Part shown: piece after piece, positions 744-55,553 of the stretch
How the letters are laid out: every line of letters starts with the position of its first letter
How positions within the stretch are numbered: position 1 is the first letter of the stretch
DNA from: Antedon mediterranea
Taxonomy: Eukaryota > Animalia > Echinodermata
Assembly (NCBI RefSeq): GCF_964355755.1
Contig: NC_092676.1
Span: 3,697,888-3,761,887, forward strand
Reading direction: 5' to 3'
DNA: 64,000 bases
Program-made: the position numbers and the translations under genes
The notes under the pieces: generated by a model
The model's database searches: none
Told to the model about the DNA's origin: nothing
What the model saw: only the letters and a program-made list of their open reading frames with translations

Positions 744-2372
744 ATGACTGGAGATTGTGATGTTTTCTTCCTGGTTGTATTGACTTTATTGTCTTCATCT
801 TCACTTGCTAATGTTGAGTTTGTTACTAAGCCACCATCAAATGTGACTGTCTATCCAGGTCAGAATGTTTCACTGCCTTGTGTTTTTGAGAATTTAATTC
901 TAAATCACCACATAGTAGAATGGAGTTATTGGCCAAGTTACGAGTATAAGGAGATTATTTCACATGACAGAAATATTTTGTTACCAAGTATTAATAACAT
1001 TGCTGAAAGTTACTCAATTCTAGGTGATGAAATGAATTTCACACTTTTTATCAAAATACCAAGTTCAATAGACTTTAAATCATCTTCTAGTATAAAAACT
1101 GATTATAGATGCTCTGTGTATGAGCTAATCAAAGATGTCCCTATTGAAATAGCAATTTCAACTGTCGTCATACCGAAATATACATTTCATTCTCCAGTGT
1201 GTGGAGCAATCATCAAAACTGTTGTCATGGGAGAAACATTATTATTAGGATGTTGGCCACCAGAGACAGATTATAATGTTACAACAATTTTAACTGTAAA
1301 CAAACAAGTTCTACCTACTACTTATTATAATGGGGGCATTGCTTACAACTTGACTGTAACAAAAGAGTACCATAATGCAGTGTTTGTATGTGAATCGAGA
1401 AGAAAAGAAACAAATGAGACCAGAAGTTGCTCTGTAGGCCCACTCACTGTCAACTACAAACCAGAGATTAACATCACACAGATATCACCACTGGAATACA
1501 TCTGTACTGCAGAGGCTAGACCACCTGTTGATACAACAGTCTGGATTGTGGAATCTAGTGTTCCAGAAGATCACTTTACTATTTCAAATAAGACTTTGAA
1601 ATTTATTAAATTGCCAAAAGTTGGTTCTGAAATAACATGTGAAGCAGGAAATCTTTTGGGAAAAGAATCCAAGTCAATGATCATTCCATTGTTGAACAAT
1701 AATGATGAAGAAAAAATCAAAATTTACATGATCATATTATGCGTTGTAATAACTATTAACATCATTGTTGCAATTGGCGTTTGCTACCTTAAATATAAAA
1801 AGAAACAAAATAATAACAATACTGATGATGACTATGATGATACCACTGAAAGGCAGGAGAGACAAGATGAAGATGAATATCAAATACCTGACAAAAGTAC
1901 CAGTCAACATTACCAATCATTAACATCAGAAACAATGGCTACTAAAAATGATACCACTTATGAAACTGCTTTCACAATTGACAAAGGTCAGAGTGCAAAG
2001 GTCATACAAGATACTTTACCATTCTTGACCTCTATTGATGTACAAAAGATAGAAACTGTATATGATACAACTTATGCTGAATGTGCTGTTAACAAAGAAG
2101 ATGGCACAAAATATGAAGTCATTCCTGATCAGAAGGTAGAAAAGACATCTGGTAAAGTTGATGTGAATAATCCACATGTAAGGAAACGACCTAAAGGACC
2201 TGAATGTGATGAACTTTATATTGAAATCATTGATGACAAAGAAGATATCACAAAACATGAAAGCTGTGAAAACACATCCACAACTAGTGCAGTTTATGTC
2301 AACAATCCATGTGTCAGGAAACAACAGCCTACAGGAACTATATGTGATGAACCTTTATATAGAAATCATTGA
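744..2372 (+). CDS. Single-ORF IgSF type I receptor G1 (SP-V-Ig-Ig-TM-A-type Tyr tail), 542 aa
   Basis: Signal peptide (FFLVVLTLLSSSSLA); V domain with LPC..EW..FTLFI..YRC; two more Cys-paired domains; TM IYMIILCVVITINIIVAIGVCY followed by a basic stretch; tail motifs YDD, YQI, YQSL, YET, YEVI, YVNN. A +1 insertion near 2352 shifts the last few codons. Confidence 0.9.
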   Translation: MTGDCDVFFLVVLTLLSSSSLANVEFVTKPPSNVTVYPGQNVSLPCVFENLILNHHIVEWSYWPSYEYKEIISHDRNILLPSINNIAESYSILGDEMNFTLFIKIPSSIDFKSSSSIKTDYRCSVYELIKDVPIEIAISTVVIPKYTFHSPVCGAIIKTVVMGETLLLGCWPPETDYNVTTILTVNKQVLPTTYYNGGIAYNLTVTKEYHNAVFVCESRRKETNETRSCSVGPLTVNYKPEINITQISPLEYICTAEARPPVDTTVWIVESSVPEDHFTISNKTLKFIKLPKVGSEITCEAGNLLGKESKSMIIPLLNNNDEEKIKIYMIILCVVITINIIVAIGVCYLKYKKKQNNNNTDDDYDDTTERQERQDEDEYQIPDKSTSQHYQSLTSETMATKNDTTYETAFTIDKGQSAKVIQDTLPFLTSIDVQKIETVYDTTYAECAVNKEDGTKYEVIPDQKVEKTSGKVDVNNPHVRKRPKGPECDELYIEIIDDKEDITKHESCENTSTTSAVYVNNPCVRKQQPTGTICDEPLYRNH

Positions 2373-3485
2373 TGACAAAGAGGATGGCACAAAATAGAGT
2401 TTATGTCAATAATTCTTAGAAATATTATTATACTACTTAATGAAGAATATCTTAAATTTGAATAGAAAATAATTAAACTTTCAGAAAAAATTGCTCTTTT
2501 TAAAAATTAAATTATTAATTATTTTTGTTAAATTGTATGTCATTAATAATTAATATTGTAAATATTTTTATCTTTTATAGTGTTAATGTACTGTACCAAT
2601 CGTTTTTTACTATAATTATATAGTAAAAGCTTTTAAAATCACAATTTCTAAAAACTAAATCATACTTTTGCTGTAATTTTCACACACATTAAATGAAAAT
2701 ATTAGAAATAAATTTAATACTAACATAAGTCACTAGAATATTAGTTCAGTATTGATGATATTTTTTATAAATGCTTTTTGTAACATACTAATACAAATAT
2801 ACTACTTGTATAAAATACTTAAAGATGTATTGTCCCCAAAAAACATGAAAAATGAAGATTAATTAAATCAGACATTGAATTAGAATTTTGTAGTTTTTAC
2901 AAAGTTAATCACTTCCATAGAAGGGGGGACAATATATATTTGAAGTGCATAAATTTCAAATAATTCTGTATTTTTTTATTTTTTATATTACAATTTTGTA
3001 ATACTTAGAATTAAATATTAACAATTTTTCTTACAAAGTATTATATTGAATAGTCTTATAGCACACCTAATTCCGCATCATCATGTATTGTATCCTATAC
3101 ATTTACCATATATTCCAACCCTTCCTATTAAACAGGAAATCTTTATAAAATTCAACCAAAAATAATCATGATTTTCTTATTTTTTTATAATAATATTCAC
3201 CGTTATATAGATTTCATAAACCAGTTTAGTTTTATTTCATAAAAATATTCTTAACAGTATTTCAAATACAGCATGGGATTTTGACATACAATAATTAAAT
3301 TTATCAGAGTTTATATGATGTGTACTGCCACAGAATATGAAATATAACATGCAAAAAAAAAAAAAAGAAATAAACTTTATATTTTAAAAATATTTTGCAT
3401 TTGTTTGGTTTCTATCATTGTTTTGTAAAAAACAGACAATAAGTTTGTTTACCTTTACAGAAAACTTAACCCTAGGGTCTACACT

Positions 3486-4699: not shown

Positions 4700-5790
4700 A
4701 AATATTGCTACTGTATATTAGAAATAACTATTTCAGCCTACCATGGAGTAATATGATAATAGTTAGTATACCTCCATGCTATTAAAACTCTTCAGACAAT
4801 AATAATGGAATAGAATGGCAGAGGATGAAAAAAAAAACATATTGCAGAGTGCAAGAGTGTAATTTCACTTTTCCTGCTCCAGTGCACAAAGAAATGTTAA
4901 TGCTATGGTTTCTGAACCTGATCAGCTCTCAGCCAATGAGTGAACAGCAGAGTATTACCAATACCAAAAAAAAAACCACAGGTACTTTTATTACTCAAAA
5001 CCTATCACAATAATCTCATGGTTAACTGAGTCTGATCAACTCTCAGCCAATGAGTAAACAGCAGAGGATTATCAATACTAAAAGAATTTTTTGTGTGTGT
5101 GTGTGTGTTATTTTTCACTGTAAACTTGTTGCACATCTCATTGAGACTGTGCCTTTGATTTAAAAGAGATACAATAAAAGTTCAGTTCAGGTACGAACTT
5201 ATCACAATGACCTCATGGTTGACTGAACAACTCTCAGCCAATGAGTGAACAGCAGAAAATTATCAATGTATTAGTTATTACTTCCATTATTTGTTTTCAC
5301 TAGTAGTACTCAATATAGTATTTGTTGGTTTGAAATCAATTATTTCCTTAACTTTCTATACAACAACTTTAAACCACCTGTTTATGAAACAGTCTGGATT
5401 GTGAAAAACAACAATACTCTAAAGTATTAACATTCAGTGAACCATCTGAGGTTGATCACCTGACAAGTGTAACATGCAAAGGGCAAAATGTTATTGGGAC
5501 GGCAATAAAAACATTAAGTATTCAAAAGAAATGTTAATATGTTATAAATGTAAAGATGACAACATTGGAATGCTCTACTAATTGTAAACCTACAATCATT
5601 ATAACAACGTCAGAAAAAAACAAATTATAACTACTAATTATGACGGATTATACATTGGACACAATATTAATGTAACAAAAGGTAAACACAATGCAATGTT
5701 TATTTGTAGTTCAAAGAAGAACATTTCTAAAATTTGTATGACGATTCCAAATCGCAAGATAACGACAACCGTTCCTGTAACACGTAATCA
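4700..5790 (+). pseudogene. D-type receptor remnant: promoter modules plus degraded Ig domains 3-4
   Basis: 5373-5785 aligns by eye with 32921-33373 (ccacctgtt.atgaaacagtctggattgtg, acatgcaaagg.caaaatgttattggg, actaattatgacggattatacattgga) with deletions and stops. Confidence 0.75.
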
Positions 5791-7496: not shown

Positions 7497-8309
7497 ATGA
7501 TCAACAACTTTGAAACCAACATGACTGAAGATTGTGATAATGTTTTCTTCCTGGTTGTATTGACTTTATTGTCTTCTTCTTCACTTGCTAATGTTGAGTT
7601 TGTTACTAAGCCACCATCAAATGTGACTGTCTATCGAGGTCAGAGTGTTTCACTGCCTTGTGTTTTTAGGAATTTAATTCCAAATCACCATATAGTAGAA
7701 TGGACTTATTGGCCAAGTTATGAGGAGAATGAGATTATTTCACATGACAGAAATATTTTGTTACCAAGTATTAATAACATTGCTGAAAGGTACTCAATTC
7801 TAGGTGAGGGAATGAATTTTACAATTGCTATCAAAATACCAAGATTAATAGATTTTAAATTATCTTCTAGTATAAGAACTCATTATATATGCTCTGTGTT
7901 AGAACCAAGCAAAGATGTCATAGTAACAGCAACCTCAACTGTTATTATAAAGAAACAACCATTTAGTACTCTAAACAAAGATGAGGAAAACAGTAATAAC
8001 ATTTCAATTATCATCGTTGTAGTTATTGTTGGTTTTGGTATGATTGTTGTCCTCATGATTCTCTGTTTTTCCAGAAAAAAGAAAAGTCAAATAGAAAATA
8101 AAAAAAAAATGAACAAAAATAGTTCTCAGCCAAATACATTAACAACCAACAAACTTGTTTACGATTATGTAGCAGTCACTGAAATCGAGTTAGAAGATTA
8201 TCAGGAAGTGGAGAATGAATTTTACGTTGGCGGTGATATTGTTATCAATGCAAAAAGTAAAACAGAATATGAAAATGTAAACCAATACAACTTAAAGGTC
8301 AGAGACTAA
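7497..8309 (+). CDS. Single-V-domain IgSF receptor G2 (SP-V-TM-shortened B-type tail); start may be 7521
   Basis: V domain followed directly by stalk and TM; tail YDYV, YQEV, YVG, YENV. The homologous rest of the B tail (to ~8677) is out of frame. Confidence 0.85.
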   Translation: MINNFETNMTEDCDNVFFLVVLTLLSSSSLANVEFVTKPPSNVTVYRGQSVSLPCVFRNLIPNHHIVEWTYWPSYEENEIISHDRNILLPSINNIAERYSILGEGMNFTIAIKIPRLIDFKLSSSIRTHYICSVLEPSKDVIVTATSTVIIKKQPFSTLNKDEENSNNISIIIVVVIVGFGMIVVLMILCFSRKKKSQIENKKKMNKNSSQPNTLTTNKLVYDYVAVTEIELEDYQEVENEFYVGGDIVINAKSKTEYENVNQYNLKVRD

Positions 8310-10398
8310 TTGATAATGTACTATATGATGAGCAAGCTACAAGTTTTAAAGAATACGCGGTGAATAGTGGAAGGAATGAAAAAGGACATTTATTCCAGAG
8401 CAAATAAAAGATATTAAGAACTAGAAGAGTATCAGGAAACAGAGAACAACTTATATGTTGGTGGCAATATTGTCAGCAATAGTGAAAGAAATAAAGACAA
8501 TATAAACAGGGTCAGGGACTGATTGACAATTATGATGAGCCAACTACAAGTCATAAAGAAAAGGCGATAAAAAATGGAAAACAAGGAGTAAATATTATTT
8601 ATTCCAAAGTAAATAAACAAGATTATAAAGAATGTGAAAATGAAATATATCAAGGTCCTGATAAATTGTCACAGTAAAATATCAATTAGCATAAGATGAG
8701 AAATAAATGTCATTGCAGAAAATTGTATGTATAGTTATTTAGTATAATGTAGACTTTTTTTACCTTTTAAACATTTTATACTTTGTGTTTTTAAATGTTC
8801 TGTAGGTACTGTACATATACTGCTTCTTCTTCGGGAGGTTTTTACAAATAAATAAAATTATTAGATAAATAATAACCGACTAATATCATTGCATTTTTCA
8901 TTGGTAAACAATATAATTTGTATTGTGTGTAACATTATGAATGGAACTAACCTTAATGTTATGCTATAGTGTATCCTCCTACACTCACTTGGGCAGTAGG
9001 CCAGGCTGAGGCCCAATGAAATTGGTGGTATATTATTGGTTTATAAATTGAAAATTACCATGGGCTTATCTCCAGGTTGGGCTTACACTTGAATCTAAAT
9101 GGTACTTATTACTAATATCTAATTTGTGCAACAAAATAATTGTGTAGAAAACACATTTTTCAGGATTTCTTCTCAGCGTTAACAACTTTACACCAAAATA
9201 ATAAAATATGAAGCTTCTTGATTGGACAGAATGTTGTATTGCAACAGTCATTAAACTTGCTATTGGCAGTTCTTGAAAAAAAAACCGTCTAAACAAATAA
9301 GAATAAATTATATTGTTTAACCAAAAAAAGATTTTCATTTCAAAAAAAGACAATTAAGTATATTTTTACAAAAACTAATTCAGTATTATTTCATTTGTAT
9401 GTATTATTATACAGCATTTAACAGTCACTTCTTTTGAATGTTTGTTTAGCACAAGCAAACTCATTCCTACACAAATAAAAACCAATAAGTTCACTGAACT
9501 AAATACCAGAATTAGAATTTCAAAACTAATATGATGTACTGACAACGAATTCCTTTTTAGTATGAAAACAAAACACTCTATTTTTGTCATATTTTTTTAT
9601 GTAATTATTACCGGAAAGGTAATAATTTTTATTGTGAAATGTTTTTTTTTAAATATACTATATATCTTGTAATCGTCAAAGATAGATTTTAAGTCATTTT
9701 TGCTTGTACTTGGCTATACAAAAGTTTAATAGAATGCTGATGTTCATAATATAACAACAAATTTTGAATATAAAACAAAGAATTGGGAGAAATTATTTTC
9801 CTTATTAAAACAGTGCATATTGCAAGAAAAAACTAAAAATATTACATTTTGTGGGGTGGTAATTGACAAATAATAATAATAAAAACTTACTTATACTCAT
9901 ATATATTCATATTAATATTTTCATTTAAACTTTAATAAAAGGATGAAATGTTTCAATTCTTATTTGGTCATAATTTTCATAATTATCAGAAAAAAACATA
10001 CTATTCTATGAACCCTGCATAGGTACAGATATAAAATGTCATGGTTGAATGGTTTAAACTCTCAACCAATCAGTGTAAAGTTTTAATATTGTTTTAACAA
10101 AGGAAGTACATATATATATATATATTCAAAATCATGCACTCTGGTACGTTATTGTAACACTATTATACAGTAAATACCATAGCACTTGTATAATACTTAA
10201 TAGGAATAACATCAGTTTCACATTCTGAAAAAGTTTCAGCTTAAAATTATTTAAGTATCCAGTACAAAGCCCTTAGGAGCCTGTTGGAAAGTTTTAGAAG
10301 AACATCACACCAGTATTTTGAGTCAGATACAGTGCATCAAGTTGTTTGAAAAGACTTCAATATCTGGTTTACAAGTTTTAATTTTCAACGAAAAAGTT

Positions 10399-12132
10399 AT
10401 GTATAAATACAGTGTTTGCTTCCTTGTGATGTGGATTGCATTGGTTTCTTCTTTTTGTGAGTTTGTTACTAAGCCACCATCAACAGTGACTGTCTATCCA
10501 GGTCAGAATGTTTCACTGCCTTGTGTTTTTGATAAATGTTTACATGAACATCAATACACAGTAGAATGGAGTTATTGGCCAGTCACGTTTGAATCTGCAG
10601 AGATTATTATTATTTCAAATGACAAAAATCTTTTGTTACCAAGTTTTGATCAAATTGCTGAAAGTTACTCAATTCAAGGTTATCGAACGAATTTCACACT
10701 TTTCATCAAAATACCAAGTTTAATTAATTTTAGATTTTCAAGTGTTAGCAGTCAGTATAGATGTTCTGTGTTTGACCCAAGAAACAGTGTCCCTGTTAAA
10801 ATAGCAACTTCAACTGTCATTATGCAGAAACCAACATTTCATTCTCCAGTGTGTAGAAAAATCAAGACAACTGTTGTCATTGGAGAAACATTATCATTAA
10901 GATGGATTTTACTCACCAATAACAGATTATGATGTAACAACAATTTTAACTGTGAACAAACAAGTTCTACCTACAATTATTGCTTACAACTTGACTGTGT
11001 AACAAAAGAGTACCATAATGCAGTGTTTGTATGTGAATCAAGAAGAAAAGAAACAAATGAGACAAGAAGTTGCTCTGTTGGCCCACTCACGGTCAACTAT
11101 AAACCAGAGATTAACATCACACAGATATCACCACTGGAATACATCTGTACTGCAGAGGCTAGACCACCTGTTGATACAACAGTCTGGATTGTGGAATCTA
11201 GTGTTCCAGAAGATCACTTTACTATTTCAAATAAGACTTTGAAATTTACTAAATTGCCAAAAGTTGGTTCTGAAATAACATGTGAAGCAGGCAATCTTTT
11301 GGGAGAAGATTCCAAGTCAATGATCATTCCATTGTTGAACAATAATGATGAAGAAAAAATAAGAATTTACATGATCATATTATGCATTGTTATAACTATT
11401 AACATCATTGTTGCAATTGGCGTTTGCTACCGTAAATATAAAAAGAAACAAAATAATAACATTACTGATGATGACTATGATGATACCACTGAAAGGCAGG
11501 AGAGACAAGATGAAGATGAATATCAAATACCTGACAAAAGTACCAGTCAACATTACCAATCATTAAAATTAGAAAAAGTTGCTACTAATAAAGATACTAC
11601 TTATGAAACTACTTTCACAATTGACAAAGGTCAGAGTGCAAGTGTCATGCCAGATATATACATGAGCTCTATTGATGGTGGACCAAAGATAGAAACTGTG
11701 TATGATACAGCTTATGCTGAATGTGCTGTTAACGAAAAAGATGGCACAAAATATGAAGTCATTCCTGATAAGAATGTAGAAAAGACATCGGGCGAAGTTT
11801 ATGTGAATAATCCACGTGAAAGGAAGCAACAACCTAAAGGACCTGAATGTAATGAACCACATATAGAAATTGTTGTTGACAAACAAGACATTTTTACAAA
11901 ACATGCTGATGTTGAAAACACATCCACACCTAGTGCAGTTTATGTGAATAATCCACATGTCAGGAAACAACAACCTAAAGGACCTGTATGTGATGAACCA
12001 CAAAAAGAAATTGTTGATGACAAACAAGACATCACAAAACATGTTGATGTTGAAAACACTTCCACATCCAGTTCTATTTATGTCAATAATCCGCATGTTA
12101 AAATACAGCCATCTACAAACATTCAGAAATAG
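10399..12132 (+). pseudogene. A-type IgSF receptor G3 with frameshifts in Ig domain 2
   Basis: MYKYSVCF signal peptide and V domain; indels at ~10905-11000 give a stop at 10932; the downstream ORF 11023-12132 encodes the rest, with three YVNNP motifs. Confidence 0.85.
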
Positions 12133-16185: not shown

Positions 16186-16995
16186 ATGATCAACAACTTT
16201 GAAATCAACATGACTGGAGATTGTGATAATGTTTTCTTCCTGGTTGTATTGACTTTATTGTCTTCTTCTTCACTTGCTAATGTTGAGTTTGTTACTAAGC
16301 CACCATCAACAGTGACTGTCTATCCAGGTCAGAATGTTTCACTGCCTTGTGTTTTTAGGAATTTAACTCCAACTCACCACATAGTAGAATGGAGTTATTG
16401 GCCAAGTTATGACATCAAGTACAATATTTCAAAGGACAGAACTCTTTTGTTACCAAGTATTGATAATATTGCTGAAAGTTACTCAATTCTAGGTGATGGA
16501 ATGAATTTCACAATTGTTATCAAAATACCAAGTTTATTAGACTTTAAATTATCTTCTAGTATAAGAACTTATTATATATGCTCTGTGTTAGAACCAAGCA
16601 AAGGTGTCATAATAACAGCAACCTCAACTGTTATTATAAAGATACAACCATTTAGTACTCTAAACAAAGATGAGGAAAACAGTAATAACTTTTCAATTAT
16701 TACCGTTGTAGTTATTGTTGGATTTGGTATGATTGTTGTCCTCATGATTCTCTGTTTTTCCAGAAAAAAGAAAAGTCAAATAGAAAATGAAAAACAGAAA
16801 AAAAATAGTTCTCAGCAAAATACATTAACAACCAATAAACTTATTTACGATTACGCCACAGTCACTGAAATCGAGTTAGAAGATTATCAGGAAGTGGAGA
16901 ATGAATTTTACATTGGCGGTGATATTGTTATCAATGCAGAAAGTAAAACAGAATATGAAAATGTAAACCAATACAACTTAAAGGTCAGAGACTAA
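16186..16995 (+). CDS. Single-V-domain IgSF receptor G5, paralogue of G2; start may be 16210
   Basis: Same architecture and same tail truncation (YNLKVRD*) as G2. Confidence 0.85.
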   Translation: MINNFEINMTGDCDNVFFLVVLTLLSSSSLANVEFVTKPPSTVTVYPGQNVSLPCVFRNLTPTHHIVEWSYWPSYDIKYNISKDRTLLLPSIDNIAESYSILGDGMNFTIVIKIPSLLDFKLSSSIRTYYICSVLEPSKGVIITATSTVIIKIQPFSTLNKDEENSNNFSIITVVVIVGFGMIVVLMILCFSRKKKSQIENEKQKKNSSQQNTLTTNKLIYDYATVTEIELEDYQEVENEFYIGGDIVINAESKTEYENVNQYNLKVRD

Positions 16996-19096: not shown

Positions 19097-21274
19097 ATGT
19101 ATAAATACAGTGTTTGCTTCCTTGTGATGTGGATTGCATTGGTTTCTTCTTTTTGTGAGTTTGTTACTATGCCACCATCAACAGTGAATGTATATCCAGG
19201 TCAGAATGAATGTTTCACTGCCTTGTGTTTTTGGTACCGGTAAATGTTTACATGAACATCAATACACAGTAAAATGGAGTTATTGGCCAGTCAAGTTTGA
19301 AGCTACAGAGATTATAACTATTTCAAATGACAAAAATCTTTTGTTACTAAGTTTTGATAACATTGCTGAAAGTTACTCAATTCAAGGTTATTTCAAGAAT
19401 TTCACACTTTTCATCAAAATACCAAGTTTAATTAATTTTAGATCTTCCAGTGTTAGCAGTCAGTATAGATGTTCTGTGTTTGAGCCAAATGGTAAAGGTG
19501 TCCCTGTTAAAACAGCAACTTCAACTGTCATTATACAGAAACCAAAATTTAGTAATCCAATTTGTGGAATAATCATCACTCTTGTTGTCATTGGACAAAC
19601 ATTATCATTAGAATGTTACTCACCAGTAAGAGACTATGATGTAACAACAATTTTAACTGTAAACAAACAAGTTCTACCTACTTATTATAATGGGGGCATT
19701 GCTTACAACTTGACTGTAACAAAAGAGTACCATAATGCAGTGTTTGTATGTGAATCGAGAAGAAAAGAAACAAATGAGACCAGAAGTTGCTCTGTTGGCC
19801 CACTCACTGTCAACTATAAACCAGAGATTAACATCACACAGATATCACCACTGGAATACATCTGTACTGCAGAGGCTAGACCACCTGTTGATACAACAGT
19901 CTGGATTGTGGAATCTAGTGTTCCAGAAGATCACTTTACTATTTCAAATAAGACTTTGAAATTTATTAAATTGCCAAAAGTTGGTTCTGAAATAACATGT
20001 GAAGCAGGAAATCTTTTGGGAAAAGAATCCAAGTCAATGATCATTCCATTGTTGAACAATAATGATGAAGACAAAATCAGAATTTACATGATCATATTAT
20101 GCATTGTTATAACTAATAACATCATTGTTGCAATTGGCGTTTGCTACCGTAAACATAAAAAGAAACAAAATAATAACATTACTGATGATGACTATGATGA
20201 TACCACTGTTCCTGAAAGGCAAGAAAGACAAGATGAAGATGAAAAATATCAAATAACTGACAAAAGCACCAGTCAACATTACCAATCATTAACATCAGAA
20301 AGATTGGCTACTAAATATGATACCACTTATGAAACTACTCTCACAATTGACAAAGGTCAGAGTGCAAGGGTTATGCCAGATGCTTTTCCATTCATGACCT
20401 CTATTGATGGTGGACAAAAGATAGAAACTGTATATGATACAGCTTATGCTGAATGTGCTGTTAACGAAAAAGATGACAAAAAATATGAAGTCATTCCTGA
20501 TCAGAATGTAGAAAAGACATCTGATGAAGTTTATGTGAATAATCCACATGTCAGGAAACAACAACCTAAAGGACCTGAATGTGATGAACCACAAATAGAA
20601 ATTGTTGTTGACAAACAAGACATCACAAAACATGCTGATGTTGAAAACACTTCCACATCCAGTTCTGTATATGTTAACAATCCACATGTCAGGAAACAAC
20701 AACCTAAAGGACCTGAATGTTATGAACCACAAATAGAAATTGTTGTTGACAAACAAGACATCACAAAACATGCTGATGTTGAAAACACTTCCACATCCAG
20801 TTCTGTATGTTAACAATCCACATGTCAGGAAACAACAACCTAAAGGTCCTGAATGTGATGAACCACAAATAAAAATTGTTGTTGACAAACAAGACATCAC
20901 AAAACATGCTGATGTTGAAAACACTTCCATATCCAGTTCTGTATATGTTAACAATCCACATGTCAGGAAACAACAACCTAAAGGACCTGAATGTAATGAA
21001 CCACAAATAGAAATTGTTGTTGACAAACAAGACATCACAAAACATGCTGATGTTGAAAACACTTCCACATCCAGTTCTGTTTATGTCAATAATCCACATG
21101 TCAGGAAGCAACAACCTAAAGGATCCTGTATGTGATGAACCACAAAAAGAAATTGTTGTTGACAAACAAGACATCACAAAACATGCTGATGTTGAAAATA
21201 CTTCCACATCCAGTTCTATTTATGTCAATAATCCGCATGTTAGGAAACAGCCATCTACAAACATTCAGAAATAG
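19097..21274 (+). pseudogene. A-type IgSF receptor G6 with a 4-nt duplication frameshift and expanded tail repeats
   Basis: cagaatgaatgttt at ~19203 (aatg duplicated) breaks the V domain start; further frameshifts at ~20807 and ~21123. Confidence 0.85.
20530..21250 (+). repeat. 138-nt (46-aa) coding tandem repeat, about 5 units plus a partial unit
   Basis: Unit VYVNNPHVRKQQPKGPECDEPQIEIVVDKQDITKHADVENTSTSSS; period 138 (aatccacatg at 20541 and 20679). Confidence 0.9.
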
Positions 21275-33666: not shown

Positions 33667-33669
33667 GCA

Positions 33670-34436: not shown

Positions 34437-36170
34437 ATGACTGGAGATTGTGATAATGGTTTCTTCGTGGTTGTATTGACTTTATTGTCTTCATCTTCAC
34501 TTGCTAATGTTGAGTTTGTTACTAGGCCACCATCAACAGTGACTGTCTATCCAGGTCAGAATGTTTCACTGCCTTGTGTTTTTAGGAATTTAATTCAGAA
34601 TCAGCACAAAGTAGTATGGAGTTATTGGCCAAGTATGTTAAAGATTATTTCAATTGACAGAAATCTCTCATTAACAAGTATTGATAACATTGCTGAAAGT
34701 TACTCAATTCTAGGTGATGGAATGAATTTCACACTTTTTATCAAAATATCCAGAACAATAGATTTTGAATCATCTTCTAATATTAGAAATGATTTTAGAT
34801 GTTCTGTGTTTGAACTAAGCCAAACTTTCCCTTTTAAACTAACAAATCAAGGTGTCCCTGTTGACAGAGCACCTTCAACTGTTATTATACAACCAACATT
34901 TAGTTATCCAGTGTGTGTACAGATCAACACCACTGTTGTCGTTGGAGAAACATTATCATTAAGATGTTACTCACCAGTAACAGATTATGATGTAACAACA
35001 ATTTTAACATTGAACAAACAAGTTCTACCTACAATTTATTATAATGGGTTAATTACTTACAACTTGACTGTAACAAAAGAGTACCATAATGCAGTGTTTG
35101 TATGTGAATCAAGAAGAAAAGAAACAAATGAAACAAGAAACTGCTCTGTTGGCCCACTCACTGTCAACTACAAACCAGAGATTAACATCACACAGATATC
35201 ACCACTGGAATACATCTGTACAGCAGAGGCTAGACCACCAGTTAATGAAATTAACTGGAATGTGGAGCCAAAAATTGCTAGAAAACATTTCAATATTTCA
35301 AAAGATTCATTAACATTGACTAAAAAATTGAAAGCTGATGCTGTTATCAAATGTTGGGCAGAAAATACAGTTGGAAAAACCAAAGAAAAATTTATCATTT
35401 ATTCTAACTTTACTAGTCAGAATCAAGATACTCCAAATGAAAACAATGGTAACATGATAGCTATTATCATTATGGCCAGTTTTGCATTTTTGATGGTTAA
35501 TATTTTTGTTATTGTCCTCATGATTCTCTGTTTTTTCCGTCAAAAGCGATTCAAAAAAGAAAAGAAAAAGCAGAACAAAAATAGTTCTCAGCCAAATAAA
35601 TTAAAAAATAAAAAACATGTTTACGATTACGCCACAGTCACTGAAATCGACTTAGAAGATTATCAGGAAATGGAGAATGAATTGTACGTTGGCGGCGATC
35701 TTGTTATCAATACAGAAAGTAAAACAGAAAATGAAAATCTAAACCAATTTGAAGGTCAGAGACAGGAGATTGACAATTTACTGTATGATGAGCCAACTAC
35801 AAGCTGTAAAGAAGACGCGATGAATAGTGGAAGGAATGAAAAAGGAAACCAAGGAGGACATTTTTATTCCAAAGCAAATAACAAATATTATAAAGAACTA
35901 GAAGATTATCAGGAAACAGAGAACAAATTGTACGTTGGCAGCGATATTGTTAGCAAAAGTGAAAGAAGTAAAGACAATAGAGACCAATTTCAGGGTCAGA
36001 GACAGATTAACAATGTACTATATGATGATCAGCCAACTACAAGTCGTAAAGAAGAGGCGATGAATAATGGAAAACAAAGAGTAAATATTATTTATTCCAA
36101 AGTGAATAAACAAGATTATAAAGAATGTGAAAATGAAATATATCAAGGTTCTGATATATTGTCAAAGTAA
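34437..36170 (+). CDS. Intact B-type IgSF receptor G8 (SP-V-Ig-Ig-TM-long Tyr tail with ITIM-consensus IIYSKV), 577 aa
   Basis: Uninterrupted ORF; internally duplicated tail (EDYQE.EN.LYVG twice, LYD..EP/QPTTS twice); AATAAA at ~36197. Confidence 0.92.
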   Translation: MTGDCDNGFFVVVLTLLSSSSLANVEFVTRPPSTVTVYPGQNVSLPCVFRNLIQNQHKVVWSYWPSMLKIISIDRNLSLTSIDNIAESYSILGDGMNFTLFIKISRTIDFESSSNIRNDFRCSVFELSQTFPFKLTNQGVPVDRAPSTVIIQPTFSYPVCVQINTTVVVGETLSLRCYSPVTDYDVTTILTLNKQVLPTIYYNGLITYNLTVTKEYHNAVFVCESRRKETNETRNCSVGPLTVNYKPEINITQISPLEYICTAEARPPVNEINWNVEPKIARKHFNISKDSLTLTKKLKADAVIKCWAENTVGKTKEKFIIYSNFTSQNQDTPNENNGNMIAIIIMASFAFLMVNIFVIVLMILCFFRQKRFKKEKKKQNKNSSQPNKLKNKKHVYDYATVTEIDLEDYQEMENELYVGGDLVINTESKTENENLNQFEGQRQEIDNLLYDEPTTSCKEDAMNSGRNEKGNQGGHFYSKANNKYYKELEDYQETENKLYVGSDIVSKSERSKDNRDQFQGQRQINNVLYDDQPTTSRKEEAMNNGKQRVNIIYSKVNKQDYKECENEIYQGSDILSK

Positions 36171-37500: not shown

Positions 37501-38446
37501 TATTATGTACTGAGAACAAATTCCTTTTTAGTATGAAAACAAAACACTCTGTTTTTTTCATGTTTTTTGAAAGGTAGTAATAATTTTTATTGTGTTAACA
37601 TTTTTTTCTTGAAATATACATAATCTGTTAATCATCAAAGATAGATTTTAAGTCATTTTTTTAATGTATTTGTCTTTAAAAACACGTTTGATTGCTAGTA
37701 TCAAGTTCCATATGTTTAATAGAATGCTGTTTTTTGTAAACAATTTGATGTCCATAATGGAAATATAAAAACAAATGTTGAATATAAGAAATGGGAGAAA
37801 TTATTTCCCTTATTTAAGCAGTGCATATTGCAAGAAATATATATTACATTTTGTGGGGTGGAAATTGACAAATAATAATAATAAAAACTTATTTATACTC
37901 TTCATATTATTATTTTCATTTAAACTTCAATAAATTAAATTTAATTGAATTTAATTAATTTAACTTTAATAAAATTTAATTAATTTAACTTTAATAAAAG
38001 GATTAAATGTTTCAATCCTTATTTGGTCCACATTTTCATAATTATCAGGAAATACATATTATTCTATGAACCGACCACAGATATCAAATTGCATGGTTGA
38101 ATGGGTCTAGCTCTCAGCCAATCAGAGTAAAGTTGTATTTTTTTTTACAATATTATAAGGAAGTGTATATATATTCAAAAATCATAAAGGTGCACTCTGG
38201 TATGTTATTGTAACACTATTATACAGAATACAGTAAATACCAAAACAGGAATAACGTCAGTTTCACATTTTGAGAAAGTTTCAGCTTGAAATTATTATTA
38301 AGTATCTAGTACAGTAGCCTTGAGAAACTTCTTGAAAGTTTTGGAAGAACAACTCCAACAGTATTTTGATTCAGATACAGTTTATCAAGTTTTTTTTTTA
38401 AGGCTTCAAAATCTGATTTACAAGTTTTAATTTTCAACAACAAGTG

Positions 38447-40098
38447 ATGTATAAATACAGTGTTTGCTTCCTGGTGTTGTGGATTTCATTGGTTTCAAAG
38501 ATATTTTGTAATGTTGGGTTTGTTACTAGGCCACCATCAACAGTGACTGTCTATCCAGATCAGAATGTTTCACTGCCTTGTGTTTTTAATAATTTAATTA
38601 CAAATCACTACATAGTAGAATGGACTAGTTCGCAGGGTAACATAGAACATCCAGATATTATTTCAAATGACAGAAATATTTTGTTACCAAGTACTGATAA
38701 CATTACTGAAAGTTACTCAATTCTAGGTGATGGCATGAATTTCACACTTTTTATCAAAATACCAAGTTTAATAATAGATTTTGGATCAGCTTCTAGTATC
38801 AGCACTCTTTATGCATGTTCTGTGTTTGACGCAAAAGAGAAAGATGTCCCTGTTATAACATCAACTTCAATTGTCATTATACAACCGATATTTAGAGATC
38901 CAGTTTGTTTAAAAATCAACAATACTGTTGTCATTGGAGAAACATTATCATTAGGATGTTACTCATCAGAGACATATTATGAAGTTAAAACAATTTTAAA
39001 AGTGAACAAACAAGTTTTACATACTAATTATTATGTTGGGTCCTTCAATGTTTACAACTTGACAGTAACAAAGGAACACCATAATGCAGTGTTTGTATGT
39101 GAATCAAGAAGAAAAGAAACAAATGAGACCAGAAGTTGCTCTGTTGGCCCACTCACTGTCGGCCCACTCACTGTCAACTACAAACCAGAGATTAACATCA
39201 CACAAATATCACCACTAGCATTCCACTGTACTGCAGAGGCTAGACCACCTGTTAATGAAACAGTCTGGATTATAGAATCTAGTGTTCCAAAAGATCACTT
39301 TACTATTTTATATGGGATTTTGATATTTACTGAATTGCCAAAAGTTGTTTTTGAAATAACATGTGAAGCAGAAAATCTTGTGGGAGAAGATTCCAAGTCA
39401 ATGATCATTCCATTGTTGAAAAATAATTATGAAGAAAAAATAAGAATTTACTTGATCACATTATGCGTTGTTATAACTATTAACATCCTTTTTGCAATTG
39501 TACTTTGCTACCGTAAATATAAAAAGAAACAAAATAATAACATTACTGATGATGACTATGGTGATACCACTGAAAGGCAAGAAAGACAAAATGAAGATGA
39601 ATATCAAATACCTGACAAAAGTACCAGTCAACATTACCAATCATTAACATCAGAAACAATGACTGCCAATAATGATACCACTGAAAGGCAAGAAAGACAA
39701 GATGAAGATGAATATCAAATACCTGACAAAAGTACCAGTCAACATTACCAATCATTAAAATTAGAAAAAGTTGCTACTAATAACGATACTACTTATGAAC
39801 TACTTTCACAATTGACAAAGGTCAGAGTGCAAGGGTCATGCCAGATATATACATGAGCTCTATTGATGGTGGACAAAAGATAGAAACTGTGTATGATACA
39901 GCTTACGCTGAATGTGCTGTTAACAGAGAAGATGGCACAAAACATGAAGTAATTCCTGATCAGAATGAAGAAAACACAGCTGGCGAAGTTTATGTGAATA
40001 ATCCACGTGTCAGGAAACAACAAGGACCTGTGATGAACTTTATATTGAAATCATTGATGAAAAATAGGATGGCACAAAACAGAGTGAAGAATATCTAA
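38447..40098 (+). CDS. A-type IgSF receptor G9; ectodomain and TM intact, tail frameshifted (stop at 39856)
   Basis: MYKYSVCF leader; in-frame 15-nt duplication GPLTVGPLTV; duplicated DTTERQERQ..YQIPDKSTSQHYQSL; a single A is lost at ~39798 relative to G3. Confidence 0.8.
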
Positions 40099-41873: not shown

Positions 41874-42405
41874 CTTTTACGGTGTTTTGAGGAACTGGGA
41901 TATGAATAGTTTCTTTTTCTCTGCCTTCTTTCATTTTGTAATGTCAGTATATTTAACCTGGCTTTGCTTGTTTAAATTCCAAGCATGTCCGCTACGTACC
42001 ATTATGCAAATTATACCTTTGCATACCCGGTTGCATACCTAATGAATTATTCTCCGTTTTATACACGGGGAGTGCAACGCTTACGCTACCTATGTATTAG
42101 TAATACGGCAGCACTAAACAGAATTGTTTTATGTTTAATTATTGTTATATTTAGTTTTTTATTTTATTATATTATTGTTAACTTTTACCTAATGTTTAAA
42201 TTATCTATGATACCTATAAATAATGTGCCAATCCAACTCTACAACTGATGTGAAATTTAACCCTTTTGTGGCATACGAGAACATGAATATTAATGAAAAT
42301 GTTGATCCACACTCTCAATTTTATGCTAGTTAAAATGAATCTAATTATTTTGATCCAGAAACATTCTCAGAGAATTTCTCTAAGCATAACAATGATAAAA
42401 ATATT

Positions 42406-50496: not shown

Positions 50497-52204
50497 ATGA
50501 CTGGAGATTGTAATGTTTTCTTCCTGGTTGTATTGACTTTATTGTCTTCATCTTCACTTGCTGATGTTGAGTTTGTTACTAGGCCACCATCAACATTGAC
50601 TGTCTATCCAGGTCAGAATGTTTCACTGCCTTGTGTTTTTAGGAATTTAATTCAGAATCAGCACAAAGTAGTATGGAGTTATTGGCAAAGTATGTTTAAG
50701 ATTATTTCAGTTGACAGAAATCTCTCATTAACAAGTATTAATAACATTGCTGAAAGTTACTCAATTCTAGGTGATGGAATGAATTTCACACTTTTTATCA
50801 AAATATCCAGAACAATAGATTTTGAATCATCTTCTAATATTAGAAATGATTTTAGATGTTCTGTGTTTGAACTAAGCCAAACTTTCCCTTTTAAAATAAC
50901 AAATCAGAATGTCCCTGTTGACAGAGCACCTTCAACTGTTATTATACAACCAACATTTAGTTATCCAGTGTGTGTACAGATCAACACCACTGTTGTCGTT
51001 GGAGAAACATTATCATTAAGATGTTACTCACCAGTAACAGATTATGATGTAAGAACAATTTTAACATTGAAAAAACAAGTTCTACCTACAATTTATTATA
51101 ATGGGTTAATTACTTACAACTTGACTGTAACAAAAGAGTACCATAATGCAGTGTTTGTATGTGAATCAAGAAGAAAAGAAACAAATGAAACAAGAAACTG
51201 CTCTGTTGGCCCACTCACTGTCAACTACAAACCAGAGATTAACATCACACAGATATCACCACTGGAATACATCTGTACAGCAGAGGCTAGACCACCAGTT
51301 AATGAAATTAACTGGAATGTGGAGCCAAAAATTGCTAGAAAACATTTCAATATTTCAAAAGATTCATTAACATTGACTAAAAAATTGAAAGCTGATGCTG
51401 TTATCAAATGTTGGGCAGAAAATACAGTTGGAAAAACCAACTAACTTTACTAGTCAGAATCAAGATACTCCAAATGAAAACAATGGTAACATGATAGTTA
51501 TTATCATTATGGCCAGTTTTGCATTTTTGATGGTTAATATTTTTGTTATTGTCCTCATGATTCTCTGTTTTTTCCGTCAAAAGCGATTCAAAAAAGAAAA
51601 GAAAAAGCAGAACAAAAATAGTTCTCAGCCAAATAAATTAAAAAATGAAAAACATGTTTACGATTACGCCACAGTCACTGAAATCGACTTAGAAGATTAT
51701 CAGGAAATGGAGAATGAATTGTATGTTGGCGGCGATCTTGTTATCAATACAGAAAGTAAAACACAAAATGAAAATCTAAACCAATTTGAAGGTCAGAGAC
51801 GGGTGATTGACAATGTACTATATGATGAGCCAACTACAAGTAGTAAAGAAGACGCGATGAATAGTGGAAGGAATGAAAAAGGAAACCAAGGAGGACATTT
51901 TTATTCCAAAGCAAATAACAAATATTATAAAGAACTAGAAGATTATCAGGAAACAGAGAATAAATTGTACATTGGTGGTGATATTGTTAGCAATAGTGAA
52001 AGAAGTAAAGACAATAGAGACCAATTTCAGGGTCAGAGACAGATTAACAATGTACTATATGGTGAGCCAACTACAAGTCGTAAAGAAGAGGCGATGAATA
52101 ATGGAAAACAAAGAGTAAATATTATTTATTCCAAAGTGAATAAACAAGATTATAAAGAATGTGAAAATGAAATATATCAAGGTTCTGATATATTGTCAAA
52201 GTAA
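50497..52204 (+). pseudogene. B-type receptor G10: a 20-nt deletion gives a stop at 51444 after Ig domain 3 (pseudogene or secreted form)
   Basis: Near-identical to G8 but lacks agaaaaatttatcatttatt; TM and tail are open in another frame (51395-52204). Confidence 0.85.
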
Positions 52205-54056
52205 AATATTAATTAGCATAAGAAGATATCATAAATATATCGTTGTATAATGATTTAGAATAATGTAAACTCTATTTACCTAAAAAACATTTTATACTTT
52301 GTATTTGTAAATGTTCTGTATACACTGCTTCTCCTTCGGGAGGTTTTTAGAAATAAATAAAATTACTGTACTAATATAAAAATAAATAAGAGACTAATAT
52401 CATTGCTTTTTTCATTAAATAAATATATAATTACATCGTGTGTAACATTATAAAATTGTCTCTTTTTATCTTTAGTTTTATTATCACTATTTGCATATTA
52501 TTTTTCAATTCAGCCTAAATATTGTTTAATGGAAATAACCTGAATATTATGCTATATATAATGTTTTCTCCTACACTCACTTCAGCATAGTGGGCCAAGC
52601 CAAATGAAAATTTAAGTTTGTGGTGGTACAGTATATATTATTGGTTTAAACTGAAAATTACTGTGGGCTTATTACCTCCAGGTTGGGCTTACACTTGGAT
52701 CTATATGGTACTTATTATAATAATATCTAATTTGTGCAACAAAATAATTGTGTAGAAAAAACATTTTTCAGTATTTGTTCTCAGTGTTAACAACTTTACA
52801 CCAAAATAATAAAATGTGAAGTGTCTTGATTACCGTAGACAGATTGTTACTTGTGGCAGTCATTACACTTGCTATTACCAGTTCTTGGAAAAAAACCTCA
52901 ATACAAATAAGAATAAATTATATTGTTTAACCAATAAAAAAAAGGTTTTCTTTTCAAGAAAACACAATTAAGTATATTTTTACAACAATAATTCAGTATT
53001 ATTTCATTTGTATTATTTTCCAGCATTTAACAGTTACTAGTCACTTCCTTTGAATGTTTATTTAAGCCACAAACAAGCACACTTCTATGCAATTAAAAAC
53101 AAACACTGTACTTAATACAGGAATTAGAATTTAATTAAACTAATAATATGTACTGAGAACAAATTAGTAAAACACTCTATTTTGTCATGTAATAATTTTT
53201 ATTGTGTTAACAATTTTTTTCTTGAAATATACTATATATCTTGTTAATCATCAAAGATAGATTTTAAGTCATTTTTGCTTGTATTTGTCTTTAAAAACAG
53301 GTTTGATTGCTAGTATCAAGTTCCATATGCTTAATAGAATGCTGTTTTTTGTAAACAATTTGATGTCCATAATGGAGATATAAAAACAAATGTTGAATAT
53401 AAGAAATGGGAGAAATTATTTCCCTTATTTAAGCAGTGTATATTGCAAGAAATATATATTACATTTTGTGGTGTGGAAATTGACAAATAATAATAATAAA
53501 AACTTATTTATACTCTTCATATTATTATTTTCATTTAAACTTCATTCAATAAATTAAATTTAATTTATTTAACTTTAATAAAATTTAATTAATTTAACTT
53601 TAATAAAAGGATTAAATGTTTCAATCCTTATTTGGTCCACATTTTCATAATTATCAGGAAATACATATTATTCTATGAACCGACCACAGGTACAGATATC
53701 AAATTGCATGGTTGAATGGGTCTAGCTCTCAGCCAATCAGAGTAAAGTTGTATTTTTTTTAACAATATAAGGAAGTGTATATTCAAAAATCATAAAGGTG
53801 CACTCTGGTATGTTATTGTAACACTATTATACAGAATACAGTAAATACCACAACAGGAATAACGTCAGTTTCACATTCTGAGAAAGTTTCAGCTTGAAAT
53901 TATTATTAAGTATCTAGTACAGTAGCCTTGAGAAACTTCTTGAAAGTTTTGGAAGAACAACTCCAACAGTATTTTGATTCAGATACAGTTTATCAAGTTT
54001 TTTTTTTTTAAGGCTTCAAAATCTGATTTACAAGTTTTAATTTTCAACAACAAGTG

Positions 54057-55553
54057 ATGTATAAATACAGTGTTTGCTTCCTGGTGTTGTGGATTTCATT
54101 GGTTTCAAAGATATTTTGTAATGTTGAATTTGTTACTAGGCCACCATCAACAGTGACTGTCTATCCAGGTCAGAGTGTTACACTGCCTTGTGTTTTTGAT
54201 GACAAATTAATTCTAGATCACCACAAAGTAGAATGGACTTATTCTCAAACTGACTTTGAGGCTCCAGATATTATTTCAAATGACAACAATATTTTGTTAA
54301 CAAGTATTGACAACATTGCTGAAAGTTACTTAATTGTAGGTGATGAAAAGAATTTCACACTTTTTATCAAAATACCAAGATTAATAGATTTTAAATCATC
54401 TTCTAGTATTAGCACTTATTATAGATGTTCTGTGCTTGAACCAAGCAAAGATGTCCCTGTTGAAACAGCAACTTCAACTGTTATTATACAATCAATATTT
54501 AGAGATCCAGTTTGTTTAAAAATTAAAAAAACTGTTGTCATTGGAGAAACATTATCATTAGGATGTTACTCACCAGAGACATATTATGACGTTAAAACAA
54601 TTTTAAAAGTGAACAAACAAGTTTTACATACTAATTATTATGTTGAGACCACCAATGTTTACAACTTGACTGTCACAAAGGAATGTCATGATGCAGTGTT
54701 TGTATGTGAATCAAGAAGAAAAAAAACAAATGAAATCAGAAATTGCTCTGTTGGCCCACTCACTGTCAACTATAAACCAGAGATTTACATCACACAAATA
54801 TCACCAATGGAATACATCTGTACTGCAGAGGCTAGACCACCTGTTAATCAAACAGTCTGGATTATAGAGCCCAACCTTCCCCAGGAAAATTATGAGATAT
54901 CTAATAATACATTAATATTGACTGAAAAGTTAAAGGCTGATTCAGTTATAAAATGCTGGGCAGAAAATTCAGTTGGACCAACAACAAAAAGTTTCAACTT
55001 TGATCAAATAAATGATAAAAATGAAGAAACGGGCAAAAAAAATTATATTTTCCTTATTATTGTTGCAGTCAGTGTTGGAATTGTTGTTGTAATAAGTATA
55101 CTATTGATGATCTATTTTTTAAGAAAAAAAACATTGCATCGAGAAAATAAAACAACAAAACAAGGCGCGTCACAAAATAAAATAAAAAGCAAAGGTAAAG
55201 AAGAACTTGTTTACGACTACGCTACAATAGACGTTACAGATCAGGAAACCGAGAACAGTAATATAAGCAGTAATAAAAGAAACAATGGGCCATCTAAAGA
55301 ACTTAACGATAAGAAAAAGAAACAACACACCTATTCTGAAGTGGATGAGGTGGAAAGTGATAACATACCTGTTTATTCTGAACTAAACAAACCAGATTAT
55401 AAGGAATGTGAAAATGAGATATATGAGGGTCCGACCGGAGTGGCTGATTCTAAAGAGGAAGGAGTACAAGATAATGTAGATGTTTACTCCAAAGTGAACA
55501 AACCAGATTACAAAGAGTGTGAAAATGAGATATATCAAGGTCCTGAAATGTAA
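54057..55553 (+). CDS. Intact IgSF receptor G11 (A-type leader and V domain, B-like domain 3 and tail)
   Basis: MYKYSVCF leader; KLKADSVIKCWAEN; tail YDYA, TYSEV, VYSEL, VYSKV and YKECENEIY twice. Confidence 0.92.
   Translation: MYKYSVCFLVLWISLVSKIFCNVEFVTRPPSTVTVYPGQSVTLPCVFDDKLILDHHKVEWTYSQTDFEAPDIISNDNNILLTSIDNIAESYLIVGDEKNFTLFIKIPRLIDFKSSSSISTYYRCSVLEPSKDVPVETATSTVIIQSIFRDPVCLKIKKTVVIGETLSLGCYSPETYYDVKTILKVNKQVLHTNYYVETTNVYNLTVTKECHDAVFVCESRRKKTNEIRNCSVGPLTVNYKPEIYITQISPMEYICTAEARPPVNQTVWIIEPNLPQENYEISNNTLILTEKLKADSVIKCWAENSVGPTTKSFNFDQINDKNEETGKKNYIFLIIVAVSVGIVVVISILLMIYFLRKKTLHRENKTTKQGASQNKIKSKGKEELVYDYATIDVTDQETENSNISSNKRNNGPSKELNDKKKKQHTYSEVDEVESDNIPVYSELNKPDYKECENEIYEGPTGVADSKEEGVQDNVDVYSKVNKPDYKECENEIYQGPEM

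Follow-up and report, generated by a model that had tools for sequence, protein, structure and literature searches.

A tandem cluster of intron-free, nectin-like immunoglobulin superfamily receptor genes in the crinoid Antedon mediterranea, with V-domain loops of possibly mosaic ancestry

A 64,000-nucleotide stretch of the genome of the crinoid Antedon mediterranea (NCBI RefSeq assembly GCF_964355755.1, contig NC_092676.1, forward-strand positions 3,697,888 to 3,761,887), referred to here as the window, carries a tandem cluster of ten intron-free genes for receptors of the immunoglobulin (Ig) superfamily (IgSF) that resemble nectins and CD155. With moderate confidence, the variation in the loops of their variable-type (V) domains was read as consisting mostly of old, diverged loop segments, with gene conversion keeping the framework alike and with selection for diversity perhaps confined to the B-C and F-G loops.

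The whole window (G+C content about 30%) was searched by tblastn using its first gene (g0744) as query. Ten V-bearing copies of one gene family were located, all on the + strand between 744 and 55553, with start points near 744, 7497/7521, 10396, 16186/16210, 19097, 32140, 34437, 38444, 50497 and 54054. A full copy is a single intron-free open frame that encodes a signal peptide, a V-type Ig domain, two more Ig domains, one membrane span and a long tyrosine-rich tail. The sole copy with three further Ig domains instead of two is g32140, and in g7497 and g16186 the V domain is the only Ig domain ahead of the membrane span. Six of the ten copies are fully intact and keep open frames of 261-577 codons, one has a frameshifted tail and three are broken. 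On their V domains the copies fall into four subfamilies: (g0744, g7497, g16186, g32140), (g34437, g50497), (g10318, g19109) and (g38444, g54054). The copies and the elements of the first gene are as follows (tail classes A and B are defined further on).

744..2372, + strand: g0744, intact, 542 amino acids (aa); signal peptide, V domain, two Ig domains, membrane span at 1728-1784, class A tail (YQSL, YVN).
816..1172, + strand: V domain of g0744, mature residues 1-119.
Loops of the g0744 V domain, + strand: B-C 888-908; C-C' 930-950; C'-C'' turn 960-971; E-F 1056-1088; F-G 1125-1139.
1377..1529, + strand: domain 2/domain 3 junction block of g0744 (AVFVCESRRK...ARPPV).
7497..8309, + strand: g7497, intact short form; V domain 7596-7949, membrane span, class B tail; without domains 2 and 3.
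10396..12132, + strand: g10318, broken, domain 2 carrying frameshifts and a stop; V domain 10459-10824 intact; class A tail.
16186..16995, + strand: g16186, intact short form; V domain 16285-16638, membrane span, class B tail.
19097..20813, + strand: g19109, broken by a 4-base insertion inside the V domain near 19208; V domain 19157-19535; class A tail.
32140..33666, + strand: g32140, 508 aa; V domain 32215-32574, three further Ig-like domains, membrane span, 32-aa tail.
34437..36170, + strand: g34437, intact, 577 aa; V domain 34512-34889; 9-residue F-G insertion; class B tail with a canonical immunoreceptor tyrosine-based inhibitory motif (ITIM; IIYSKV).
38444..39856, + strand: g38444, V domain 38516-38881 and ectodomain intact; class A tail, in which a 111-bp duplication precedes a frameshift relative to g0744.
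50497..52204, + strand: g50497, near-identical recent duplicate of g34437; V domain 50569-50946; frameshift after domain 3 near 51440.
54054..55553, + strand: g54054, intact, 499 aa; V domain 54126-54488; class B tail ending KPDYKECENEIYQGPEM.

An earlier note on this DNA had described three V-domain loops (after the first cysteine, after the tryptophan and after the second cysteine; here loops 1, 2 and 3) that vary in sequence and length on a fixed framework, and had taken them for a ligand-binding face under diversifying selection that is analogous to complementarity-determining regions (CDRs) 1-3. The descriptive part of this claim held up. All of its framework strings (FVTxPPSTVTVYPGQNVSLPCVF, IAESYSI and NFTLFIKI) and all of its loop strings (five for loop 1, five for loop 2 and six for loop 3) were located in the copies, and its range of 810-54490 agrees with the first V start at 816 and the last V end at 54488. 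Among the ten copies, eight different sequences were counted for loop 1 (lengths 9, 10 and 12), ten for loop 2 (lengths 8-13) and nine for loop 3 (lengths 7-16). Column entropy across the ten copies confirmed the steadier framework, with a mean of 1.20 bits in the 42 loop columns versus 0.59 in the 94 other columns (Mann-Whitney p 6e-7); none of 135 circular shifts of the loop mask reached the observed mean, and invariant columns numbered 2/42 in the loops and 36/94 in the framework. The indels of the V domain are, as had been proposed, multiples of three and are located in loops. A fourth variable and indel-bearing region, the E-F loop (IPSS-IDFKSSS), was absent from the earlier list. Given that the V domains split into four subfamilies of two to four copies, much of the variation lies between subfamilies.

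The structural identity of these loops was determined by profile alignment and by modelling. Cys22, Trp36-39 and Cys97-104, the cysteines and tryptophan expected of a V-set domain, are present in all ten copies, and the spacing from the tryptophan to the second cysteine is 63 residues. The Pfam V-set model (PF07686) scored 17.3-22.7 bits in six of the seven proteins scanned, below its gathering cut-off of 26, and gave no match in the seventh. A family profile compared with the PDB aligned to Ig kappa V domains (8iv5_B, E 1.5e-6), with framework region (FR) 2, CDR2 and FR3 all covered; in this alignment loop 1 falls on CDR-L1, loop 2 falls on FR2 (the end of strand C plus the C-C' turn), and CDR-L2 lies opposite the conserved DRNILLPSI. 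In an AlphaFold model of the three-domain ectodomain (predicted local distance difference test score (pLDDT) 76.6, predicted template modelling score (pTM) 0.51), the V strand order is A A' B C C' C'' D E F G. Strands were assigned by DSSP (B 17-21, C 32-38, C' 46-48, C'' 53-56, D 65-69, E 76-80, F 92-103, G 109-120), and the loops between them are B-C 25-31, C-C' 39-45, C'-C'' 49-52 (SHDR, conserved), E-F 81-91 and F-G 104-108. By both the kappa V alignment and the model, the proposed CDR analogy stands for loop 1, which is the B-C loop (CDR1), and for loop 3, which is the F-G loop (CDR3), and fails for loop 2, which is the C-C' loop and part of FR2. Since loop 2 falls on C-C' and the CDR2 counterpart C'-C'' is conserved, only two of the three quoted loops are CDR-equivalent. 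The C-C' loop is the most variable element of the V domain (1.78 bits). In V domains the B-C, C'-C'', D-E and F-G loops lie at the CDR pole and the A-B, C-C', C''-D and E-F loops at the opposite pole; by this textbook topology, C-C' and E-F would lie at the pole opposite the CDRs.

When the three-domain model was searched with Foldseek, the top matches were CD155/Necl-5 domains 1-3 (E 1.2e-12), nectin-1, nectin-3, Necl-4 and the IgLONs (to 1e-9); the top entries 6arq_D, 6o3o, 4fqp_A, 3alp_B and 4fmf_A had E values of 1e-12 to 4e-10 and template modelling (TM) scores of 0.41-0.53.

Divergence is distributed very unevenly along the genes. Between g0744 and g19109, 45% of bases differ in the signal peptide and 31% in loops 1-2, and the figure falls to 1% for the C-terminal half of domain 2 and to 0% for domain 3. 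For g38444 and g54054, signal-peptide DNA is identical, loops 1-2 differ at 27% of bases and the C-terminal half of domain 3 at 44%. The pairwise homoplasy index (PHI) test gave p 0.0005 for the ectodomain (205 informative sites). In the N-terminal V framework, the synonymous divergence (dS) between the two 5' types described below is 0.065 versus 0.068 within V subfamilies, and the signal-peptide DNA that adjoins this alike framework differs by 41-47%. The non-synonymous divergence (dN) of the B-C loop is 0.46 between subfamilies versus 0.12 within them, and synonymous and non-synonymous divergence both peak in the loops. These observations suggest that framework segments were homogenised while loop segments stayed old. 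In theory, duplicates undergoing gene conversion should show such a pattern where selection acts against the homogenisation of a few sites.

Two unrelated types of 5' region and signal peptide (412-743 and matching 5' flanks) were distinguished. The MTGDC... type precedes g0744, g7497, g16186, g34437 and g50497, and the MYKYS... type precedes g10318, g19109, g38444 and g54054; g32140 has a diverged version of the MTGDC-type signal peptide and a flank that resembles that of g0744 only from base 732. Both types lead into almost the same V framework, which suggests that the family has two kinds of promoter.

Codon models were fitted using our own code for GY94 M0, M1a and M2a and for an alpha/beta grid, where alpha is the synonymous and beta the non-synonymous rate; the M0 likelihood reproduced that of IQ-TREE (-1854.00). 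Global codon frequencies were used, as partition-specific ones gave unstable dN/dS ratios (omega; loop 1 5.8, loop 2 0.34). For the whole V domain, omega under M0 (GY94) was 0.95. Nei-Gojobori (NG86) sums over 45 pairs gave dN 0.39, dS 0.37 and omega 1.06 for the three loops and dN 0.14, dS 0.14 and omega 1.03 for the framework, with per-loop values of 1.51 (loop 1), 0.61 (loop 2) and 1.42 (loop 3). By maximum likelihood (ML), the pooled three-loop omega was 1.07 (p 0.81 against 1) and that of the framework 0.86. The earlier note had named a loop dN/dS at or below 1, with variable sites scattered rather than gathered on one surface, as evidence against diversifying selection; the pooled loop value does not differ from that of the framework, and on this criterion the claim comes close to failing. 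The comparison of M2a with M1a gave a likelihood ratio test (LRT) statistic of 40.3 (p 2e-9) and put 16% of sites at omega 5.4, including many in the three loops of the earlier note. This result is doubtful because the test assumes a single synonymous rate and the loops have a raised one. When rates were estimated separately, alpha was 2.13 and beta 2.28 in the loops, and 0.75 and 0.64 in the framework; the synonymous rate is thus 2.8-fold higher in the loops (LRT 10.4, p 0.0012), and no difference in omega between loops and framework was detected (p 0.51, ML alpha/beta model, 10 copies). Forcing a shared synonymous rate moved omega to 2.4 in the loops and 0.66 in the framework. Loop omega was 0.85-1.07 when only ungapped columns, or only the seven copies with unbroken V domain and ectodomain, were used; the ungapped columns (23 loop codons) gave a loop alpha of 1.93 versus 0.76 in the framework (p 0.007) and a loop omega of 0.89. 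In the grid mixture, allowing beta>alpha gained 2dlnL 3.5, a figure without a calibrated null. Nine sites had P(beta>alpha)>0.9, of which five lie at the CDR pole (residues 25, 29, 72, 105 and 107) and four at the opposite pole (the insertion column after residue 41 and residues 45, 88 and 96).

Partitions were also defined from structure, independently of variability. Omega for the four CDR-pole loops was 1.50 by ML (p 0.25 against 1) and 1.74 by a tree-free bootstrap (interval 0.98-3.67). The B-C and F-G loops together gave 1.83 by ML (LRT p 0.15) and 1.82 by bootstrap (95% interval 0.90-4.49; 96% of replicates >1). The opposite-pole loops gave 0.64-0.82, the C-C' loop 0.44-0.63 with a very high synonymous rate (alpha 5.1), and the strands 0.92-1.04. 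Diversifying selection on all three loops as originally proposed was therefore not borne out; a narrower form of the proposal survives as a borderline hint for B-C and F-G only, with an interval that spans 1, and C-C' gives none.

Several points weigh against our reading of old loop segments, a converted framework and selection on two loops. Three or four of the ten copies are decaying, and the codon tests rest on ten sequences from one window. No partition had an omega significantly above 1 by likelihood ratio, and the framework omega of 0.8-1.0 is unusually high for Ig strands, which general relaxation would also fit. The AlphaFold model is only moderately confident at residues 41-70 (pLDDT 56-68, and <50 at 42-44), and the poles were assigned from strand order and textbook V-domain topology. 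Within the V domain alone, the PHI test gave no recombination signal (p 0.44-0.64, 87 informative sites), so the homogenisation of the framework rests on the dS pattern and not on detected tracts.

Some of these points are shared with a rival account, in which constraint is merely relaxed in a young and partly decaying family whose loops tolerate change and indels, and in which the V domain has seen no adaptive diversification. We regard this account as a serious, if rather unlikely, contender. An omega near 1 in loops, strands and the whole V domain is what it predicts, as are variable loops at both poles beside a conserved C'-C'', the three or four broken copies out of ten, and the small gain (2dlnL 3.5) from beta>alpha once synonymous rates may vary. 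Relaxation is harder to reconcile with six copies that keep frames of 261-577 codons in DNA of 30% G+C and with an omega of 1.8 for B-C and F-G (96% of bootstrap replicates >1) versus 0.44 for C-C', and by itself it leaves the 2.8-fold loop synonymous rate unexplained.

The model of the earlier note, which has a single ligand-binding face built from three loops equivalent to CDR1-3, set on a fixed framework and shaped by classical diversifying selection, appears improbable. It would draw on the M2a result (LRT 40.3, p 2e-9), on the shared-rate omegas of 2.4 (loops) and 0.66 (framework) and on the equivalence of B-C and F-G to CDR1 and CDR3. However, the raised loop synonymous rate violates the M2a assumption, the local omega is 1.07 for the three loops and 0.61 for loop 2, the second loop is the C-C' turn of FR2 with the CDR2 equivalent conserved, and the high-posterior sites split 5 to 4 between the poles. 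The case carries a caution on method, since most of a signal with p 2e-9 vanishes once synonymous rate variation and mosaic ancestry are allowed.

A regional mutation bias, by which loop segments would simply mutate faster (for example through indels or repeats) without selection or gene conversion, is very improbable. Alpha and beta are indeed both about 2.8-3.5 times higher in the loops, every variable loop has indels and alpha reaches 5.1 in C-C', but no simple repeat was found in the loop DNA, and segments of different age fit better the combination of a flat framework dS between subfamilies (0.065 vs 0.068) with a rising B-C dN (0.46 vs 0.12). An alignment artefact, with gappy loop columns pairing non-homologous codons and inflating all rates, can be given hardly any credence: loop 2 does have a dS of 0.70-1.2 and several possible gap placements, but the loop 1 alignment is unambiguous and the ungapped columns keep alpha at 1.93 vs 0.76 (p 0.007) with omega 0.89.

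Returning to the reading of old loop segments on a homogenised framework, the V domain would be the ligand-binding module of predicted surface recognition receptors that would signal via the phosphotyrosine motifs of their tails. The family would undergo birth-and-death turnover, in which copies duplicate, exchange segments and decay; gene conversion would homogenise the V framework while old loop segments persist, and the variation in C-C' and E-F would represent tolerated change rather than a binding face.

The rest of the ectodomain evolves differently from the V domain. The domain 2/3 junction block (1377-1529 in g0744), compared across seven copies, had an omega of 0.21 (bootstrap interval 0.08-0.49) and a dS of 0.16, individual windows reaching as low as 0.05; for the V domain, those copies gave an omega of 1.20 (interval 0.85-1.76). 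The junction is under strong purifying selection, with the V domain overall at omega of about 1. The block is near-invariant among paralogues, carries two N-x-T sites and is close to the Anneissia proteins; it may be a conserved interaction site. The membrane-distal V domain is the fast-evolving part, as expected for a ligand-binding module, and its rate is also compatible with relaxation. Within the conserved block, g38444 has a 5-residue duplication (VGPLT VGPLT).

Two tail classes were recognised. Class A (YQSL plus one to three YVNNP repeats) is found in g0744, g10318, g19109, g38444 and the ENA protein P0004. Class B (YDYA[TV], repeated NE[ILF]Y[VIQ]G, YS[KEQ]V and a C-terminal KPDYKECENEIYQGPE) is found in g7497, g16186, g34437, g50497, g54054 and the Anneissia proteins P0001-P0003, with the C-terminal KPDYKECENEIYQGPE common to P0001 and P0002. 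Both classes are conserved between crinoid genera and are paired with different V subfamilies. A single V subfamily bears class A (g0744), class B (g7497, g16186) and short (g32140) tails, and g38444 (class A) and g54054 (class B) have identical signal-peptide DNA and different tails. A canonical ITIM (IIYSKV) is present only in g34437 and g50497; g7497 has LVYDYV, and the other copies have YS[KEQ]V or Yxx[ILV] cores. Judging from motif resemblance, the tail motifs (ITIM-like YSxV, NxxY, YxN) may recruit SH2 or PTB proteins. None of the seven membrane spans examined contains K, R, D or E, and there is therefore no sign of adaptor-coupled activating partners.

Tandem repeats contribute to the tails. 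Repeats of 138-141 bp (46 aa) encode the YVNNP tail motif (20531-21249, 11796-12098), with 5.2 copies behind and across the g19109 stop, beyond which the 138-bp repeats of that tail extend, and 2.2 copies in g10318; these differing counts mean that the copy number of the YVNNP motif varies between genes. In the g38444 tail (39562-39793), the 111-bp duplication consists of two YQIPDKSTSQHYQSL units with a spacing like that of an immunoreceptor tyrosine-based activation motif (ITAM; YQSLx12YELL), followed by the frameshift relative to g0744. A third tail form is represented by 93-bp tandem repeats at 1-325, 14075-14445 and 33703-33901, which are coding-like with 31-aa units (ENENEIYVDGNEVDINQPIRxNKFEDLDGYI). 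The coding-like NEIY-repeat sequence of g32140 lies in frame behind the in-frame TAA at 33664-33666. An orphan degenerate copy at about 13.87-14.46 kb has the TAA and flanks as in g32140, and a 140-codon frame (14042-14464) there is still open; the TAA found in both may be a nonsense mutation that the two share, or have another explanation.

The proteins most similar to the family are uncharacterised ones from the feather star Anneissia japonica, at 46-50% identity, and from Antedon mediterranea. In the ten clusters looked up that cover the V domain or whole ectodomain, all 12 listed members belong to these two species. Automatic annotation labels the more distant crinoid relatives 'cell adhesion molecule 4-like' or 'kin of IRRE-like'. 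The one cluster looked up outside crinoids holds a Saccoglossus hemicentin-like protein (P0007) whose match is confined to Ig domains 2 and 3 (residues 178-286 of 304).

The genes are similar to those of the nectin/Necl group (CADM, CD155/PVR) in encoding a type I protein with a V and two further Ig domains and a nectin-like fold, and domain 3 has weak sequence matches to nectin-1 (E ~1e-3). Unlike nectins, the crinoid genes are intron-free and tandemly multiplied, with a fast-evolving V domain and long tyrosine-rich tails. V domains of the PVR family carry the signatures (V/I)(S/T)Q, A-x6-G in C'-C'' and T(F/Y)P in F-G. These signatures gave no evidence of membership of that family, with [VI][ST]Q in 0/10 copies, T[FY]P in 2/10 and A-x6-G in 9/10 but at the C''-D/D strand. 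Nectins and Necls end in a C-terminal PDZ- or afadin-binding motif; a PDZ-type ending of this kind was present in none of seven C-termini (YRNH, KVRD (twice), MVLN, ILSK, QIYT, GPEM).

Ig kappa V domains are matched in Cys22, Trp36 and Cys99, in a D-x-Y-x-C-like motif, in the C' and C'' strands and in B-C and F-G loops that vary in sequence and length. The crinoid V domain is a true V-set relative of those of antibodies, though an unsegmented one. In contrast to antibodies, the crinoid variation is carried in the germline by paralogues, and it peaks in the FR2 counterpart (C-C'), the CDR2 counterpart being conserved. A rearranging antigen receptor (Ig or T-cell receptor) was considered and rejected, the F-G loop, G strand and domain 2 being contiguous in one germline frame in every copy.

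In kind, the cluster resembles lineage-specific multigene families of IgSF receptors, among them the Botryllus fester co-receptors (FcoRs), the Hydractinia Alr genes and the vertebrate KIR, LILR and NITR clusters. KIR/LILR and the teleost NITR are tandem birth-and-death families with similar ectodomains on different tails, a fast membrane-distal domain and ITIM-type motifs. The crinoid genes are like them in forming a tandem cluster with similar ectodomains on different tails, and unlike them in having uncharged spans (7/7 examined) and a canonical ITIM in only two of ten copies. To our knowledge, immune gene expansions in echinoderms are known mainly for non-Ig families, and full-text literature searches, judged by title and abstract opening, found no paper on a crinoid V-type IgSF receptor cluster.

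A more ambitious and quite tentative interpretation is that the cluster is a crinoid germline repertoire of V receptors derived from an intron-free nectin-like gene, in which the CDR1- and CDR3-equivalent loops would be kept diverse by selection, the framework homogenised by gene conversion, and two conserved Tyr-motif tails swapped among V subfamilies. If true, this would be an independent invertebrate-deuterostome counterpart of natural killer (NK)-type paired receptor or histocompatibility receptor clusters. Botryllus FcoR and Hydractinia Alr are described as type I proteins of 520-610 aa with variable-type and C2-type Ig domains, a long tail with an ITIM, hemITAM or core Y-x-x-I/L/V motif, and clustered genes (PMC12065747). 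By that description, the crinoid genes are alike in being clustered and in encoding 262-577 aa with V and Ig domains, core Yxx[ILV] motifs, one canonical ITIM type and other Tyr motifs. They differ in lacking the sushi domain that FcoRs have; FcoR variation is studied as allelic polymorphism in a histocompatibility locus. If B-C and F-G were truly selected for diversity, an example from a basal echinoderm would join the scattered invertebrate cases of FcoR and Alr, in which V-type Ig receptors with ITIM-like tails serve recognition, and the comparison would bear on the use of V domains before rearranging antigen receptors.

The spacers hold two further relics of the family, an Ig-domain fragment at 5370-5784 with 79% identity to the additional domain of g32140 (32916-33374) and, at 13736-13850, a V fragment with 72% identity to 757-871. 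The remaining features of the spacers are as follows.

24498-27474, + strand: degenerate long interspersed nuclear element (LINE).
28348-30631, - strand: DIRS-like element with reverse transcriptase and integrase SAM-like domain; 40-48% G+C against the 30% background.
41184-45255, + strand: LINE with an intact 949-aa ORF2 at 42406-45255 that has endonuclease and reverse-transcriptase domains.
46807-48094: 62-bp satellite of about 20 units with 91-97% matches, between the LINE and g50497.

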